DNA of 64,000 bases from Promethearchaeota archaeon Loki_b32 (GTDB lineage Archaea; Asgardarchaeota; Lokiarchaeia; Sigyniarchaeales; SOKP01), in contig NJBH01000011.1 of assembly GCA_005223125.1 (NCBI GenBank), positions 32,001-96,000 on the forward strand, written 5' to 3'. Positions 5,328-39,748 of the stretch are shown piece after piece. Every line of letters starts with the position of its first letter. The first letter of the stretch is position 1. The notes under the pieces are model-generated. The model worked only from the letters and a program-made list of their open reading frames with translations. It was not told where the DNA came from and made no database searches. Both the position numbers and the translations under genes were made by a program.

Positions 5328-5342
5328 GGAGGTTTTAAAAAA

Positions 5343-5650
5343 CCTGAACCTCGATGTCAATCCTAATATTATGACCAAATTATCTCATACCCCTCCACTG
5401 CCTTAACCATGAAGCGTGAACACCTATAGTTACGAATGCTTCCTCCCGGACCTGTTCGGGTTTCTAATTACGAGCTTATACCTTTCCTACAAAAGGTACT
5501 ACTCTGACACCCACCATCATGGGGACAGCTTCGACGGAATACAAGATTGGATAATATTACTCATGAGAACTGAATTCAGGCAATTTCCACTATTGAGCAT
5601 TTTGTGGTCGACCCAGCAAGGGGCTTCAAGCATTGCCCAAGTTGCTCGAT
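5343..5650 (-). ncRNA. ffs: Archaeal signal recognition particle (7S) RNA
   Basis: Minus strand has helix 8 CAGGTCC-GGGA-GGAAGCA (5437-5454), helix 6 TACCTTTT-GTAG-GAAAGGTA with GNAR loop (5479-5498), CCTGAATT/GGTTCAGG long-range pairing, ~310 nt, T-run after the 3' end; ends approximate. Confidence 0.88.
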
Positions 5651-8174: not shown

Positions 8175-8298
8175 TTTTTATTAGTATTAAGGAATCTATA
8201 TTACTTTTTGTATAATCCAAGAAAACAATTACATATTTCTAAATTATTATTTTTAACAAGTGCTAAAATTTTTATATTAGTTAACTAATCTATAAGTT

Positions 8299-8461
8299 AT
8301 GGGCAAAAATTTTGTTGAAAAGCCTTGTATAATATATAATGGCTCCTGTCAATCCCCTGGATTTTTGTCTTTTGGTTGTTGTGTAATTAATTACACACAA
8401 GAATAACCTACTCTGCCTTTTGAAATTTTATGCCTCTCATTGAGGCTTGTTGGCAGGAGCT
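8299..8461 (+). ncRNA. Candidate structured RNA / micropeptide transcript, copy 1 (sORF 8299-8406)
   Basis: Closing stem 8341-8352/8450-8461, hairpins 8380-8397 and 8432-8446, 22-nt core 8355-8376 identical to copy 2, TTTATA at 8271. Confidence 0.65.
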
Positions 8462-8540
8462 ACCTTTATTAATTTGAACTTTAGAACTATTTTAAAGTTA
8501 AAAAAGAAGATCTAAATCTCTATAAACGCTATTATTATCT

Positions 8541-9386
8541 CTATAGTAAAAGAAAAGTTCCTAACAGATATGTATCTAAATTCAAATCTTTTAAGAGTTT
8601 CATATTGTTATAAAGATAAGCATAAATATTTTCCTCGCTAAAATATTTAAAACAAGAGTTGTTCCCTTTTACTTCCCTTAAGATATTTACAATTTGAGTA
8701 AGTATCATTTTTAGATTTTTAATAACCAAATTAGTATCACTTTTAATTAGATTAATGTCTTTAATGTTAAACCATGATTCTTTGCTAAAAGAAATATTCT
8801 TTAACTCTGGTTTATTTTGAAAATCTTCATGGTTTTTGAAATTTTTACAAAAGTATTCAATTTTGTTTAGAATTAAACTTTTAGATTTACTATACATTTT
8901 ATTTTCAATAATATTTCTTAACATTATAAGGATTTTTTGAAAGATACCCAAAATATCAAAAAAATCAGCTACTTGTGCCAGATCTTCCACTTCTCCCCAT
9001 TGACTATAATAATCTTCGATTTCGTTAAGAAATGGCAAGAATACATTAATATCTCCGTCCCAAGTATGTCCTTTTTTTTCCCATACAGGATCAAATTCTT
9101 TTATAAAAGCATTTTTAATGACATTTAATCGTCCTAAAAGAAGCTCAGTCTTTATATGTTTTGTATCAGCTGCAACAAAAAGTAGATTATATTTTTCTTC
9201 TAATATATAAACCCACCTTAAACCTCCCATTTCTATAGAATCCAATGATTCTTTAAATTCAACCATTGAAAAGTGATGAAATGCTGTTAAAAACCCAGAA
9301 ACAATATCTTCATCAGCATCCGTTTTCAAAAAAGATCTATATAATAATTTAACTCCAGATTCGGCATCTAATATCCAAATTATCAT
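8541..9386 (-). CDS. Longin-like domain protein
   Basis: N-terminal IWILDAESGVKLL...DIVSGFLTAF..FS...LDSIEMGG...LLFVAA pattern typical of Asgard longin-like domains. Confidence 0.65.
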   Translation of the reverse strand: MIIWILDAESGVKLLYRSFLKTDADEDIVSGFLTAFHHFSMVEFKESLDSIEMGGLRWVYILEEKYNLLFVAADTKHIKTELLLGRLNVIKNAFIKEFDPVWEKKGHTWDGDINVFLPFLNEIEDYYSQWGEVEDLAQVADFFDILGIFQKILIMLRNIIENKMYSKSKSLILNKIEYFCKNFKNHEDFQNKPELKNISFSKESWFNIKDINLIKSDTNLVIKNLKMILTQIVNILREVKGNNSCFKYFSEENIYAYLYNNMKLLKDLNLDTYLLGTFLLL

Positions 9387-9547
9387 ATTACGAATGAAAA
9401 AAAATAGCTTCTCTTTAGGAGATAAATATATTACTCTTTTAAATTATTTCTAAATATCTTTAGAAAAAAAATATAGGGTTTATATACATTGAAGCGTCAG
9501 TAATTATATTTTATACATTGCCTTTTGAAATTGCTACATCACATTCT

Positions 9548-10555
9548 TTAATGAATATCCAAAAAATGTTCAATTTTGCTTAGTTTAAACAAGAGCCAAG
9601 ATTTGAATTGTTTAAAATCTAATAATGAGGGAATTTCAGAATACTCCGATAAATTATCATAAAGTACATCAATAACAGAATTTATAAGCCCGATAGCTTT
9701 AGGTCTAATTAAGACAATTTTATCCATCGATGATGTTTTAGAGTGTGCTTCTCTGTACTGTGATATAAATTCACATGCTCGTTGGATTATCATAATAGTC
9801 TGATTATCAAAATTTTTTTCAATACAGGCGTAAAAATCTCGTAATTCGGCGTCTTTATAGGGAATTTTCCAATCTTTCATAATTCCAACCCATTTGCCTA
9901 GAGAAATTGACTTTTTTTTCATAAGATCTCCGAACTTATTATTAAATTCTGGTGAAGTGTTTTTTCTTCTAAATTTACTCTGATATAATTCTGTTAATGG
10001 TCTAAGACAGGAGGAAAGTTTATCGTTAAGAATAGTCTCAAGACCCTTTGAATAATTATTAATAACGCTAGAAGCATCGAAATTAGCAGAATTTTGAAAT
10101 TGGTTAAAGATTTGATCTCCAGATGTAAACATCTTTCGAATTTCAAGATTAGAAATTTTATGGATCTTTAAACCATTTAACTGCTGTAAATTATTTTTAA
10201 ATTTATCAATTATATCTTCTATAAGATCAAGTTTGGTGTAGAACCAATCTCTAAATTCTTCTGGTTCTTCATATATAGAAGGAATAGATTCTGCTGGATG
10301 CGTGATTTCTTGAATCTTCAATGTGGGAATTTTATGTGGGGAACACTTGACCTGAGAAGGACTTTTTACTTTATTTAATATTATCTCAAAATCTAATTGG
10401 TCCGCTTCTGTTAAAGAATAATGAGATATATTCATCTGAGCCCATTCCTCAATAAACTCTTGTGGTATTCCTTTATTCCAATGATGATTACGTAAATAGT
10501 TAAATAATTTTTGCGGATCATATAACTCTTGCAATTCTAAATGTGACGGATTCAC
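9548..10555 (-). CDS. Hypothetical protein, possible degenerate HEPN-like C-terminal domain
   Basis: GTG start with GAGG upstream; DASSVINNYSKGLE...ISLG...YREAHS. Confidence 0.5.
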   Translation of the reverse strand: MNPSHLELQELYDPQKLFNYLRNHHWNKGIPQEFIEEWAQMNISHYSLTEADQLDFEIILNKVKSPSQVKCSPHKIPTLKIQEITHPAESIPSIYEEPEEFRDWFYTKLDLIEDIIDKFKNNLQQLNGLKIHKISNLEIRKMFTSGDQIFNQFQNSANFDASSVINNYSKGLETILNDKLSSCLRPLTELYQSKFRRKNTSPEFNNKFGDLMKKKSISLGKWVGIMKDWKIPYKDAELRDFYACIEKNFDNQTIMIIQRACEFISQYREAHSKTSSMDKIVLIRPKAIGLINSVIDVLYDNLSEYSEIPSLLDFKQFKSWLLFKLSKIEHFLDIH

Positions 10556-10661
10556 CCTCTTACTACGGTATTCATGTAAGAAACTTTAATTTGTATTTAA
10601 GGATGAATTATAGATCTGATAAGAGTATATAAACAAAAAAATGAAATTTAAAATTCAAAAA

Positions 10662-10889
10662 TTAGGAAAAATCATCATCCAGAAATTTTTTTATCTTTTT
10701 TCGTTCCTCCTCATCAAAAGCCTCTGCAAAGGCATCTAATTCATCTTCTGCTAAAATATTTTCCTCGTCAATGACGCTTTTGATATCTTCAATAAAAAAG
10801 GATGACCCACACTCAGCACATTCGATATGGGAGACAAAAACAAAAACATTTTCAGACTTACAACGTGGACAGTAATATTCCTTTGGCAT
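10662..10889 (-). CDS. Small zinc-ribbon protein with acidic tail (75 aa)
   Basis: MPKEYYCPRC...CAECG; ATG 10889 preferred over the longer track start. Confidence 0.6.
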   Translation of the reverse strand: MPKEYYCPRCKSENVFVFVSHIECAECGSSFFIEDIKSVIDEENILAEDELDAFAEAFDEEERKKIKKFLDDDFS

Positions 10890-11117
10890 TCTTAAAGTAA
10901 AAAATATACATAATTGGATAATTATTATTATTGAAACTGAGAATATAAAACTATCATCATAAAATATTATGGAAATAAATAATGGGGATTTAATGAGAAA
11001 TCTCATCACCAATCAATAATTTATTATTTCTTTAAGAAATCTTCCCTATTTAAATGAAAATTGAATAAGACCTACATGACTTTTTTCTTTAAACTTTTAA
11101 ATATATATCCTGATTTC

Positions 11118-11411
11118 TCATGAAAAGATTACCGTTTTTAAGATATTATCTTTAAATTCTTCCCGTAATGCATTTTTTGTCACTACATCTACTTTACATT
11201 TAAATTCTTCTTCGAGAAATAAAGAAAGCCCAATGAAATCAAAAAGATCTGCTCCTTCCTCAAAATCGGCAAGTATATCAATATCACTGAATTCCTGAGG
11301 TTCTCCGTTTGTATAGGAGCCAAATAATCCTAATTCTTTCACTTTATATTTCTTTTTTAAATCTGGTTTTAGGTTAGTTAGCCTTCTAAGAATTTCTTTT
11401 TTATTAAGCAT
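11118..11411 (-). CDS. Minimal nucleotidyltransferase (MNT, MntA-like antitoxin)
   Basis: LGLFGSY...SDIDIL...KVDVV, 97 aa. Confidence 0.88.
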   Translation of the reverse strand: MLNKKEILRRLTNLKPDLKKKYKVKELGLFGSYTNGEPQEFSDIDILADFEEGADLFDFIGLSLFLEEEFKCKVDVVTKNALREEFKDNILKTVIFS

Positions 11412-12142
11412 CTTTTACAAATCATTTAGTATTTTGTTATTTTAAATATACCATTTTTAATATTTTAATGATAACATGTTAAGAATTTAATGATAAAATT
11501 ATGGATTCTCCTATTTTAAATTAGTATTTAGAATTATAGAAGGGGAAAAAGATATCTTATGATGAAAGAATAGATTTTTAATATTTTAATTCAGAAATAT
11601 TTATTTCAAATCTAAATTACAACACTTTTGGTTTAAATATTAAGAAATTTACCAATAATATTGATTCTCTCCTTAATGTGATATAAAAATAATTTTTGAA
11701 AAAATAGAAATTGAATTTTATGATAAGATAGAACTAAAATTTATAATCCATATAAAGAAAATTAGAAAAGGCATTTTAACGAGTAAAGAACACTAAAATT
11801 AAAGATTTGAAAAAATGAACTAGCAATCCGTGGGAGATATATACTGTTCATTATAATATGGATTTCCCAAAGGAAGAATTTGTCTTAGAAAACATACCCC
11901 TCAGATATTGGGTTAATATTATCTAAGTGTTGGTGATAAACTTAGTTCCCAATATAGGCATTTTTTGACAGGTGATGATTAAAATGCAAAATTTCTAGTC
12001 ATTTACATTACTCACAAAAAACCACCCCTCAAAATTTATGAGTAGACGCTTTCTTTTCATCAATTATTTTTTGAGGAAAATGCATAAAAAGGGTAGTCCT
12101 CATTTTATGTTAATTAGGTAAATAAAAGAAGTGATCAAAGCA

Positions 12143-13367
12143 TTGGCGACATATAAAACACTTCAAGAGAGTGGACTATTCCCTACTATATCACATCTCA
12201 ATTGCGATATTTGTGGATCTTCTAATATTATAGAAAATCTTGAGGGATATGTGTGCCGGGATTGTGGAATTGTATTAGGAAATTCAAAAATTACAATACG
12301 ATAGACCTTATAATGAAGATTTAATCCAATATGCCAAGGGTGTAGGCAAAACACAGATAGGAACGAGGCGAGAAAGAATAATCTCGCCTCTTTCTATCAA
12401 ATTACAAAGAATAAACAAATACAATTCTATAACCACCAGTGAACGAGCAGTAATTGAGGGAGCCCGTATTGAAGTAGCGAGGATCTTTAATTATTTAGGT
12501 TTAGATGGATATGATGCTTTAAAAGAAATGGTTCTAGATAAGTTCAAAAAAATTAGAGCGAAATTTAGACAGGGTTCAAAATATAAAAACATAGAAAAGC
12601 TAGTTTCAATTACGATTTATTTCTGTCTTAAGCTTAGGAATGTATCTATTAATCCATACGAATTGATTGAAATTTCTAAAATTTCAAAAAAAGAGTTCAA
12701 TGATTTCATTTTGCAGCTTCAAAAGTTCTTACCAGAATATGGTGAACGTAATAGACAGGAATATATTTCCCAGAGAATTCTCGAAATTTCTGAACATTTT
12801 GATTTAGGAATGCCATTTTACTTTCTTTCGAAGAAGATTTTGTATAGGTTATGGCAAGGAATTAAAAATACAACTGATAATGTAGTTGCTGGATTAATAA
12901 GTTCAATCTCTATTTTATGTTCGTATAAAGAAAAGGTAAGTGTAAGTTCCATTTGTAATCGTTTAGGTATTAGAATGAGTACTGTCTAGGCACAGGTTAA
13001 GAAAAAGATTTTTCAGAGGTTTAAAGTTGTGGGATTTGTAAGTTTAATAAAATCGTCCGATTTCTTAGTGAAAATAATAAATAAATTAGGGATTTTAGAA
13101 GAACCAGGATTAAGAGATTAGGAAGATGGAGGAGAAATCATTCTCGGAAATGCTTCGAAAATATTTAATATTCATAATGATTTAGATTACTATTATTTTG
13201 CACTACCAGGAAAAGAAAAATACCCTATATTTCTTTTTCTTAAGGTTTATGATTCTCCGTTAGATTTTAATTATGAAAGACGTCCTAAAATTAAAGGTGA
13301 TTCATTACTCGATTTTGAATTATATAAGTATTATACATCTAAAGACCCTCCTTTATTAGGGATTTAA
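12143..13367 (+). pseudogene. Divergent TFB/TFIIB-like gene, disrupted
   Basis: Zinc ribbon CDICGS...YVCRDCGIVL, 1-nt insertion near 12278, cyclin-like helical repeats in 12528-12989, in-frame TAG at 12987 and about 13119, frame continues to TAA 13365-13367. Confidence 0.7.
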
Positions 13368-13487
13368 CTTTTCCTTAGTGTTTTACTATAAACTATAAAC
13401 TCTAATTTTTCACTTTTTTTTTTATTTCCTTTTCTATAAATTTGAGTTAATGCATTATTCTTTTTTTATTTAAATTTACATGTTCTA

Positions 13488-14183
13488 ATGGAAAACATCC
13501 ATATCCGTACAAGAAAAGATGAAGATGTAAAGAAATATCTCAAACCAATGTATATTTACAAAATTGGAGTCGATCTAACAAGTTTAATGGAAGACGTTTA
13601 TAAGTTAATAACTATGGTTCTCGAAGAACGATTACACTATCTTTCTCAGTTAAACTTTTTAGAAACTAAAGGAGAACATTTACATACTAATATCATACGA
13701 AAAGATTTACTCAAATTAAATACAGAGTTAGTAAGGCTATTACAGAGTAATGGGGATAAAACCGGAGTATATAGTGCCCTCTCTATCAATGCTCAAGCAT
13801 TAATCCTTTACCACATGCTAGAATTAGTAGAGCAACAAGGTTTAGATGTTTTATTAGATTATTTTATAAAACTTAGCAAGGATGCAAAAAAGAAAAATAG
13901 CTCAAAAGCTGCCAAGATATTAGCTTCTGATGGACGATTGCAAAGAATTTATTTAGAATTAAAAAAAAATGTTGAATTTTCTCCTGAAAACCTTATTCAT
14001 CCGAAGTATCATGTATTAGTTAAGATAATTTCAGAACAATTACAGAATAATCCCTCCTCTCGGATTTTAGTATGTGTAAAATTAAGAAATTCAGTAAAAA
14101 ATATCGTAAATAGACTAAAAGAAATAAAAACGATAAAACCAAAACGTTTTGTAGGTCAAGCAACAAAATTTTTACATATCTGA
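13488..14183 (+). pseudogene. Internal fragment of Hef/FANCM-like SF2 helicase
   Basis: HPK...RILV.VKLRNSV...RFVGQA (motifs IV/IVa) after the helical insert; Walker A/B and motifs V/VI absent. Confidence 0.8.
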
Positions 14184-14358
14184 AAAATAATCCTTTTTTG
14201 ATTGCTTCTTTTTGGATCTCACGTAGTTGAAATATTTTTCCTTCAAAAAGTACACGTAGAATACGCTTATCATTAATAAATTTAAAAATATCTCTGTTTG
14301 TGGAACATTCTATTTTTTCTTTCTCAAGTTTATCAGAAAAATCTCCTAGAGTTATTAT
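14179..14358 (-). pseudogene. N-terminal fragment of a Ski2/Hel308-like helicase
   Basis: IFQLREIQKEAIKKGLFFR is a Q-motif segment; similarity ends before the expected Walker A; AGGTGA at 14367-14362. Confidence 0.55.
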
Positions 14359-14368
14359 ATATCACCTA

Positions 14369-14671
14369 TTAGTATGGATTTGTCCATTTTTTCATAATTT
14401 CTGAAAACGTCTCTGAATCTCTCGATATCTCTATACTTTTAATGACTCCTATATTTCTAACTTTTAACTCTAAATTAATATAACAGATTAAACTATGAAG
14501 AGGTTCTCCATGTAAATGAATATGAGGGAAATATATATTCGGATTCCCTTGTTTTAAGATATAATATTCAATTCCAAGCTCAATTTCTTTATTACATAGC
14601 GGACATATAACCTTTTGTGCCTGTCGTTTAACTTTTCTGAGATCCTTAATTCTACCAAAAACGATAACGAT
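14369..14671 (-). CDS. Small putative zinc-binding protein (100 aa), missed by the ORF track, probable ATC start
   Basis: Open frame IVIVFGRIK...VICPLC...PHIHLHGEPLHSLICY...KVR...WTNPY*; in-frame TGA two codons before ATC; AAGTGA upstream. Confidence 0.65.
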   Translation of the reverse strand: MVIVFGRIKDLRKVKRQAQKVICPLCNKEIELGIEYYILKQGNPNIYFPHIHLHGEPLHSLICYINLELKVRNIGVIKSIEISRDSETFSEIMKKWTNPY

Positions 14672-14764
14672 TGTATATCACTTTCTATTTTTTATGAATA
14701 CAACAAATATCAAGGAAATTTAAAGGAAAAAAATATGAAAATATTCTTATTTTTAAGAAAAGGT

Positions 14765-14927
14765 CACTCCCGCCCCATTAACGCAAGTATGCGTCGAAAA
14801 TATTTTAGGAGGAGGGCGAAATCAGAGTGTAGAAAACTACACTACCAAAAGACAAAAATCCAGGGTATAGGGTGGGAGTGGAATTTATTTTAAATTCATA
14901 TTGAATATTCTTGAAAATTCTTGCCAT
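14765..14927 (-). ncRNA. Candidate structured RNA / micropeptide transcript, copy 2 (sORF 14805-14927)
   Basis: Closing stem 14880-14869/14776-14765, hairpins 14826-14843 and 14780-14795, 22-nt core 14844-14865, TATATAAA about 30 nt upstream of the ATG. Confidence 0.65.
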
Positions 14928-15038
14928 TACATGTATAATGAACTCAATTTAACATTTATATATGTTGTTTATAATTAGAAAATTCCAAGACTCTATTTTT
15001 TTCTTTATAAATACTAAGTTTAATCTTCATCAATACAC

Positions 15039-38029: not shown

Positions 38030-39748
38030 TTATACAACATATTTCCATGGTCTTTGTCTTTTTAATCCATAAGCTTTTTCAGCATATTCCTCAACCATGC
38101 GATGCGTATTGAAAAAAGCAGCTAGGGAAATAGCACATTGCATCTTGTAGAGCCACTCATCGTGATTCATATATGTCGGGATAACTTGGTTTTCTAAAAT
38201 ATCATAAAGAGCGTTTGAATCAATATCCCAACTATTTGAAACTCCAGGGTCATCTGGATTTGAATCATCGGGTCCAATAGCCCAACCAGCTAAATGATTC
38301 TTCTTATATCCTTCTAACCACCAACCATCTTGGACTGATAAATTCAATATTCCATTTAACGCGGCCTTCATTCCACTTGTACCACTTGCTTCCCGATATC
38401 TATTAGGAGTGTTGAGCCAGACATCTACTCCTGATACGAGCATATGGGAAAGATCCATGTTATAATTCTCCATGACAACAACCTTTACACCATAATTATC
38501 ATATAGATATTCGCCCGCTTCATGGATTTTCTTAATATAATCTTTTCCCATTTGGTCTTTTGGATGAGCTTTTCCTGCGAATATGAATTGAATGTGATCT
38601 TTCGCAATTTTACCCAATCTGTCAATATCGTGAAAGATTAGTATAGCTCTTTTGTAAGTTGCAAATCGTCTAGCAAATCCGATTGTAATTAATTCCTCAT
38701 CAAGTAAATTCCAACTATGACCTTTTTGGTAATTTATCAGATTGAATTTATTCTCAATGTGGTTATCAAAGAGATCTAGTGGATCTAATTCTATCGCATT
38801 TTCAAGCACAGCGGGATTTGCCCTCCAATTTGGCCATTTTTTAGTAAACATTTTCCTAAACGGTTTAGATACCCAGAATGGTAAGTGAATACCATTGGTA
38901 ATATAGTCAATTTCATATTGGGGGAACATTTGTCTACTTATGTCACCATGCTTTCGGGCAACAGCATTTCTGTATCTAGAAAGAGCCATACCCAGAAATG
39001 TCATATTTAATTCTCCATTGTCATTTGCTAGATCTCTAATTTCCTTCGGCATTCTATTTCCAAATACTTTTTTAACCAAATCTTGTTTGAATCTATCATG
39101 ACCTGCAGGTACAGGGGTGTGAGTTGTAAAAGCAACTTTTTCTTTAACTTTTTCAATGCTTCCCAATCGATTATACAATTCTAAAGTAGCAAAAGAACCA
39201 TGTCCTTCATTAAGATGATAAGTTTCAATATTATTGTAGCCTAAAGATTCCAGAAGTTTTACACCTCCAATCCCTAATATCATTTCCTGTACGATTCTAT
39301 TCCAACGACTTGTGCTATCATATAAAGAACCAGTCATTTTTTTCATCCAATCTTCATTTCCTGGAATATCTGTGGTTAAAAGATAAATTGGAAGAATATG
39401 TCCTGATTGCCCTATTACTCGATAGAGCCACGCGCTTACAAGAACGTCTTTGTCCTCAATTCTCATTGTAATTGGTTTTTCTACTTTTTCAAATTCATAG
39501 TAAAAGTTCCAAGCAATTTCTTTTTCTTTTTGTTCACCAAATTCATTAAAAAATTGATAAAAATATCCAGCACTATAGCATAAACAAAGTCCAACCATTG
39601 GGATTTCCAAATCTGCAGCTGACCGAACAGTGTCCCCTGATAATACACCTAAACCCCCACTATACGTAGGAATATTTGAATCTACAGCTATTTCCATAGA
39701 AATATATGCTACATTGGTATTTGATTTTAAATCTTCATCGATTTCCAT
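38030..39748 (-). CDS. glgP: Alpha-glucan phosphorylase
   Basis: YSGGLG.L.GD, HLNEGH, FTTHTPVPAGHD, ARRFATYKR, EASGTSGMKAALNG. Confidence 0.93.
   Translation of the reverse strand: MEIDEDLKSNTNVAYISMEIAVDSNIPTYSGGLGVLSGDTVRSAADLEIPMVGLCLCYSAGYFYQFFNEFGEQKEKEIAWNFYYEFEKVEKPITMRIEDKDVLVSAWLYRVIGQSGHILPIYLLTTDIPGNEDWMKKMTGSLYDSTSRWNRIVQEMILGIGGVKLLESLGYNNIETYHLNEGHGSFATLELYNRLGSIEKVKEKVAFTTHTPVPAGHDRFKQDLVKKVFGNRMPKEIRDLANDNGELNMTFLGMALSRYRNAVARKHGDISRQMFPQYEIDYITNGIHLPFWVSKPFRKMFTKKWPNWRANPAVLENAIELDPLDLFDNHIENKFNLINYQKGHSWNLLDEELITIGFARRFATYKRAILIFHDIDRLGKIAKDHIQFIFAGKAHPKDQMGKDYIKKIHEAGEYLYDNYGVKVVVMENYNMDLSHMLVSGVDVWLNTPNRYREASGTSGMKAALNGILNLSVQDGWWLEGYKKNHLAGWAIGPDDSNPDDPGVSNSWDIDSNALYDILENQVIPTYMNHDEWLYKMQCAISLAAFFNTHRMVEEYAEKAYGLKRQRPWKYVV

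Follow-up and report, generated by a model that had tools for sequence, protein, structure and literature searches.

Among the described systems closest to the RNA studied here, the C4 antisense RNA of phages P1 and P7 and its multi-copy chromosomal relatives in Acinetobacter (RF01695; PMC5320573) are built from three stems and two single-stranded loops. A second group comprises the decoys 6S, CsrB/RsmZ and GlmY, which are stand-alone, stable, often multi-copy RNAs closed by a terminal stem; they carry a protein site that is single-stranded and conserved. For aCPSF1, the termination factor of archaea, the minimal site consists of two U4-tracts within 18 nt or more, and its orthologue from Loki acts similarly (PMC8716108). 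Almost nothing is known about Asgard non-coding RNAs beyond the housekeeping set. Here, we describe a real, uncatalogued Asgard RNA family, termed Loki RNA, which shares the C4/CI plan (stems P1, P2 and P3 with two single-stranded loops) and the layout of the decoys. It is new as a family: as the initial annotation of this DNA had proposed, its elements match no known RNA family, with only chance hits in Rfam 15 (E of at least 2), and a search of openly accessible papers returned no description. The RNA is near-universal in the largest Loki family, its U-rich loop is strictly selected, and it has been copied by virus-like DNA.

A covarying RNA plan and its range

The window, i.e., the entire stretch of 64,000 nt analyzed here, contains two copies of the element on opposite strands (Table 1). 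The parts listed in the initial annotation were all recovered in place in both copies, including the invariant 22-nt core, which has exactly two matches in the window and none in 100 shuffles. Both copies fold on the annotated strand (z = -5.1 and -5.9 relative to shuffles). Some details needed revision. The closing stem of copy 1 is present, but its limits shift to G8341 and U8461 (a G-U pair); ACC and a U-run come next. ATG(G)GCAARAATTTT, which lies upstream and was listed as a separate part, is neither a start codon nor a TATA box but complements the core and sits where the transcript is predicted to begin. Lastly, the label of a two-copy family describes the window correctly, whereas the genome total is seven.

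Table 1. Coordinates of the features of both element copies within the window.
Feature	Positions	Strand	Basis or remark
Copy 1 promoter, BRE-like element and TATA box	8262..8279	+	About 30 nt before the leader motif; sequence, TATA spacing
Copy 1 predicted 5' leader	8299..8340	+	Start near A8299, inferred from TATA spacing
Copy 1 anti-core site	8301..8312	+	12 bp with core or 13 bp with linker-P3 junction; nascent folds
Copy 1 P1 5' arm	8341..8352	+	First base G
Copy 1 invariant 22-nt core	8355..8376	+	Two U-tracts (U5, U4)
Copy 1 P2 hairpin	8380..8397	+	7 bp; missing from a few homologues
Copy 1 pyrimidine-rich linker	8398..8431	+	Variant specific to the copy 1 locus
Copy 1 P3 hairpin	8432..8446	+	Missing from some homologues
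Copy 1 P1 3' arm	8450..8461	+	
Copy 1 tail	8462..8470	+	ACC, then U-rich run; predicted terminator
Copy 2 TATA box	14953..14963	-	
Copy 2 anti-core site	14915..14925	-	At predicted 5' end (start near 14928)
Copy 2 P1 5' arm	14867..14880	-	
Copy 2 invariant core	14844..14865	-	
Copy 2 P2 hairpin	14826..14843	-	
Copy 2 linker	14796..14825	-	Opening motif kept in sister family too
Copy 2 P3 hairpin	14780..14795	-	
Copy 2 P1 3' arm	14765..14778	-	
Copy 2 tail	14758..14764	-	ACC, then U4

Selection on RNA structure, originally proposed from the two window copies, holds in an alignment of 103 distinct sequences, in which 90% of the cells are paired and all 24 modeled pairs show two-sided, i.e., compensatory, changes. 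Covariation amounts to 0.48 in this alignment, which was fitted to the model, compared with 0.20 after shuffling and 0.08–0.10 in slid controls. An unfitted MAFFT alignment gave 0.33 versus 0.19 after shuffling, so the disappearance of covariation in a larger alignment, named at the outset as grounds for abandoning the interpretation, was seen neither with nor without fitting. G-U pairs exceed A-C pairs by 149:53 on the annotated strand, which favors an RNA made from that strand.

The covarying closing stem P1 surrounds a large loop that contains the core, P2, a pyrimidine-rich linker, and P3. Only P1, the core, and the linker are constant; P2 or P3 may be lost, the linker can hold inserted extra hairpins, and truncated and chimeric copies exist. 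A GC-rich extra hairpin was seen at one and the same linker point in several lineages (L079, L106, L115, L147, and L188). Both U4-tracts of the core are retained in 99 of the 103 copies as well as in the core of a sister family, the other letters of which differ. Both families and the virus-like copies described below have in common a closed loop in which two U-tracts, each of four or more bases, flank GUC. Folding also predicts a weak 4-bp hairpin within the core, which is inaccessible to covariation analysis because the core is invariant.

The initial annotation had suggested a covariance-model search of Asgard genomes. Using a model built from 76 distinct copies, we found the RNA in 29/29 same-family genomes of at least 80% completeness, across six genera. 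A 17-nt core allowing one mismatch is present in 127/134, and copy numbers range from 1 to 14 per genome. The source genome (4.13 Mb, 30% GC; Lokiarchaeia/Promethearchaeota) harbors six exact or one-mismatch copies and one degenerate copy, two of the seven being truncated. The sister-family form, reached stepwise from a weak model match in a closed 6.0-Mb genome, is represented by 23 copies with a variant, shifted core (U4-GUC-U5-GGAU versus GGA-U5-GUC-U4-GGU in the window's family). It follows the same plan with one extra hairpin, and its helices covary too. Its carriers include the cultured strains Promethearchaeum syntrophicum MK-D1 (4,324,194 bp; PMC11316595) and Ca. Lokiarchaeum ossiferum B35 (6,035,313 bp; PMC9834061), which contain about four copies each and thereby make the RNA directly testable. 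The MK-D1 copies lie near 1734449(+), 1882171(+), 2676615(-), and 4255144(-), those of B35 near 2498180(-), 2878277(-), 3151973(-), and 3281576(-).

Among genomes of other Asgard families, the covariance model yielded 1/121 matches, a weak one judged to be due to chance; family f4 gave no match, and the shared pattern occurs elsewhere in the phylum at control level only, in searches whose strict filters can miss remote homologues. The range given here was set by genome-level searches, which place the matches in Loki families, and not by record titles, some of which name Hermod, Thor, Odin, Hod, or Patescibacteria. Two contigs filed under Saccharibacteria/Patescibacteria (L076 and L099) carry the RNA together with Loki-type or virus-like genes (Loki-type in L099) and are probably misbinned. 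Two unusual arrangements were noted in sister-family carriers. In B35, a full copy is directly trailed by another core, which is degenerate and has a hairpin of its own (L367/L395; G055, about 2498180-2497980, minus strand). Sister-form core-only sites that lack a closing stem (L401, L376, and L387; G050 C1:1044303, minus strand, and orthologues) are conserved just 3' of the same gene in three genomes, and it is possible that the same protein site is used there in a 3' UTR.

Genomic setting and predicted leader

The proposal that copy 1 is its own transcription unit is supported by three sequence features, namely flanking genes in all four orientations, the placement of the TATA box, and the U-run after the stem. 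The commonest arrangement is a co-oriented gene downstream (62/148). About 45 copies have a small membrane gene on one side and a radical-SAM gene on the other, 11 copies of the copy 1 type face a longin-like gene, about 12 of the copy 2 type adjoin a gene for a helix-hairpin-helix protein, and three genera share a sister-family locus between phosphofructokinase (PFK) and a convergent gene. Paralogues thus occupy vertically inherited loci that persist across genera, and the context fits a family of stand-alone RNA genes with occasional duplication. None of four metatranscriptome contig sets covered the most conserved copy, which counts neither for nor against transcription.

The stretch between the two convergent window copies (8541-14650) holds the longin-like gene, a minimal nucleotidyltransferase (11118-11411), and ORFs of no assigned function; plus- and minus-strand copies spaced 13–36 kb apart recur in six relatives. 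The window also contains an archaeal SRP RNA at 5341-5643(-), which at 71.9 bits falls under the Rfam gathering score and was therefore missed by the default scan. At about 39440-39500 of G000 C56, we noticed an isolated stretch that resembles the 3' end of 16S rRNA (helix 44/45 region) except that the hairpin arms are swapped, and a T7 run lies behind it; this may be a regulatory rRNA mimic. The 23S rRNA gene on G000 C68 appears to contain two group I introns, and one of these carries a LAGLIDADG-like ORF.

The exact core also occurs between genes inside stems of unrelated sequence on a 224-kb IMG/VR contig (L031) and on five other virus-like contigs (L076, L318, L336, L236, and L337), where it is kept within gene arrays. 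The five consist of short co-oriented ORFs, a gene content that we read as viral. Ten further viral matches to an 18-mer were discarded as chance matches within coding DNA. The 224-kb virus additionally encodes a 655-aa protein without Pfam match (L031:6476-8443(-)), which we take to resemble TerD-linked phage proteins.

A core-blind search of 120 dereplicated upstream regions returned as top motif ARGRYRRRAATTT, the reverse complement of core positions 5–17. Variation in this leader motif is compatible with G-U pairing and thus adds evidence on the strand (A becomes G in 14–30% and C becomes T in 55%, whereas G and T do not vary), and T occurs at its A positions in at most 4–10% against a T background of 34%. 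With a score of 10 bits or more, the motif precedes 51% of the training copies and 21% of the 85 metagenome copies held out, compared with 6% downstream, 0–2% in antisense orientation, and 2.8% of upstream regions across the genome, enrichments that are overstated because kin copies are not independent. That low genome-wide share, the lack of a positional peak, and the frequent lack of a TATA box after it led us to reject the motif as a general BRE-TATA element. Starts of TATA boxes peak 30–32 nt before the motif (40 hits over 56 sites; less sharply in held-out copies), which makes the motif the predicted 5' end of the transcript.

Two leaders form 18-bp helices. A second leader site, located 3' of the first in 21/22 cases, has its partner in the linker, at the U-rich 3' end; helices of at least 9 bp were found in 33/88 cases and in none of the downstream controls. 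With its own partner the helix measures 9.8 bp versus 7.8 bp with swapped partners, and compensatory examples were seen. When folds of the growing transcript were computed for both window copies, pairing between leader and core lasted until synthesis of the P1 3' arm, upon which P1 won; at copy 1-type loci the leader site can pair equally well with the linker-P3 junction. The wobble-type leader complement and the covarying second site suggest that the nascent RNA of the window's family probably masks its own U-tracts until P1 closes. The ends of the element look like an RNase P substrate, with A-2 (80%), U-1 (66%), and G+1 (128/141), a 12–14-bp stem, and an N-C-C tail (70/63%) followed by U, and RNase P RNA is present in the genome. 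The finished RNA is predicted to be about 120 nt long. The sister family shows no enriched anti-core site within 140 nt upstream, has a weaker N-C-C tail, and includes copies that seem to start at G+1 without a leader, which indicates that not all copies would undergo masking and cleavage by RNase P.

A candidate protein-binding RNA and alternative readings

The double U-tract loop shared by both families provides the two U4-tracts in a stretch of the length that defines the minimal aCPSF1 site, and the genome encodes aCPSF1 and three LSm genes. Together, these points suggest an RNA that binds protein. Our favored reading, which we hold tentatively, is a stand-alone RNA that serves as decoy or scaffold by exposing a double U-tract to a protein that binds U, either aCPSF1 or SmAP. 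Regarding its transcription, processing, protein partner, and effect, we infer the following course. Each gene of this multi-copy, trans-acting small RNA family would produce a transcript beginning with a leader, the first ca. 12 nt of which, in the window's family, would pair with the core during synthesis, while in many copies the second site would pair with the U-rich end of the linker. Terminator-like U-tracts would thereby be hidden while the RNA is made. Arrival of the last strand would close P1 and displace the leader, which might then be removed before G+1 in RNase P style, and the mature RNA would present its core to a U-tract-binding protein, most likely aCPSF1 or an SmAP ring. Viruses that keep only the core in a stem of their own would borrow that protein site. 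Besides the sister-family exceptions given above, several points weigh against this explanation: the core is invariant beyond its U-tracts, exceeding the known needs of aCPSF1 or SmAP; a decoy might be cut by aCPSF1, given its nuclease activity; and both proteins occur in all archaea, the RNA in two families only.

A more specific version, which we regard as improbable at present, would make Loki RNA either an Asgard snRNA-like Sm particle or the first decoy formed by an RNA for the archaeal termination factor aCPSF1. The leader would then conceal the double U-tract while the RNA is made, the completed molecule would titrate the factor and so tune genome-wide read-through, and Loki viruses would carry mimics to read through long operons. 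Binding to aCPSF1 or an Sm ring would bear on the control of archaeal termination and on the origin of eukaryotic U-rich small RNPs.

An unlikely alternative is a C4/CI-like antisense repressor, i.e., a three-stem RNA released by RNase P that uses its two single-stranded loops to bind matching sites of nascent paralogue leaders or viral RNAs in trans, serving autoregulation or domesticated virus immunity. The gross plan, the predicted processing at the 5' base of P1, chromosomal multiplicity (PMC5320573), G+1 and N-C-C ends, and copies within virus-like arrays all agree with it, as do the two complementary leader sites and the anti-SD-like CCUCC found in 98/154 linkers. However, complementary sites were found only in the RNA's own leader and neither downstream nor ahead of genes genome-wide, the sister family lacks leader sites, no Rfam C4 model matches, and the core is invariant where the specificity loop of C4 is variable.

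We assign a similarly low likelihood to a guide, catalytic, or ligand-binding RNA (snRNA/snoRNA-like, an ENE-type triple helix, a ribozyme, or an aptamer) with the core as active or recognition center. Such RNAs typically join an invariant core of 20–22 nt to helices that can be swapped, and here AU5G resembles an Sm site and the core as a whole ENE U-rich strands. Against this, C/D or ACA boxes in the right order are absent, and searches for C/D- or H/ACA-type antisense revealed no complement above shuffles in 23S, 5S, SRP, and RNase P RNA, the assembled parts of an incomplete 16S rRNA, and an incomplete set of 15 tRNAs. In addition, P2 or P3 may be lost, and U-A-U triples would not survive the A-to-G changes that the leader shows.

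An element acting at the DNA level, such as a MITE, a folded single-strand DNA site, or an integration/recombination core, appears quite doubtful. Copy numbers of 1–14 per genome, truncated and chimeric copies, occurrence on virus-like DNA, and the inverted arrangement of the window copies around a variable stretch would suit such an element. Yet the terminal arms covary rather than conserve their sequence as terminal inverted repeats, and target-site duplication, which the initial annotation had named as a sign of a MITE, does not rise above swapped controls (4.7 versus 4.6). Neither transposase nor integrase genes were found among recurrent neighbors or beside the chimeric copies inspected, and the source genome lacks the reverse transcriptase expected of a retron. 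The persistence of the radical-SAM, longin-like, and PFK loci across genera and the placement of TATA box and U-run also oppose a DNA element. A 382-aa reverse transcriptase lies 2 kb from a divergent RNA copy between a Cdc6/Orc1-like gene and RadA (L047:1341-2489(-)), a case that looks unrelated.

Even less probable is a cis-acting attenuator or riboswitch in which leader-core pairing versus P1 and U-run sets downstream read-through. The two folds are mutually exclusive and co-oriented downstream genes are the commonest arrangement, but flanks occur in four orientations, convergent genes lie ahead of copy 1 and of the conserved sister-family locus, and downstream genes are unrelated and 150–350 nt distant. 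Small peptide genes (a leader or PGFLSFG ORF) can be dismissed, since the core is read in three frames (54/39/10), 47 copies lack an AUG, and the core shows no synonymous change, even if an AUG often straddles the P1 start and PGFLSFG can be read from an upstream ATG in both window copies.

Comparison with known RNA classes

Y and vault RNAs resemble Loki RNA in their length of about 100–120 nt, paired ends, pyrimidine-rich internal loop, 3' U-run, and paralogues. They differ from it in that Loki RNA has no Ro-binding helix motif and no Rfam match; Ro60/TROVE was found in 0/6 genomes, three of them closed, and major vault protein in 1/5 Loki genomes. The latter hit is a shoulder domain in Ca. 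L. ossiferum (L410; G055 C1:3072766-3073095, minus strand); the remaining four Loki genomes lack it.

Sm-class snRNAs and SmAP/Lsm-bound archaeal sRNAs share with Loki RNA a size of about 120 nt, U-richness, and an AU5G-like tract followed by a stem-loop, and a candidate Sm site of the form RA(U)4-6G is present in the window's family in a genome with LSm genes. In contrast to snRNAs, the 5' and 3' ends of Loki RNA pair, the sister-family core reads U4 then U5, and searches found neither a splicing substrate nor a guide target. From 6S, CsrB/RsmZ, and GlmY, Loki RNA differs by lack of sequence likeness, by a leader masking that is absent there, and by a partner that is only putative.

Loki RNA and C4 are alike in a closing stem that opens with G and is followed by N-C-C, a longer precursor (predicted for Loki RNA), multiple copies on chromosomes and in viruses, and loop-complementary sites near the gene. 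They differ in size (about 120 versus about 77 nt), and Loki RNA is archaeal, has an invariant loop and no downstream targets, matches C4 neither in sequence nor in Rfam, and is only predicted to be processed by RNase P. As a kind, the Loki RNA family therefore most resembles C4-type processed multi-copy small RNAs and protein decoys, standing beside these classes rather than within them.
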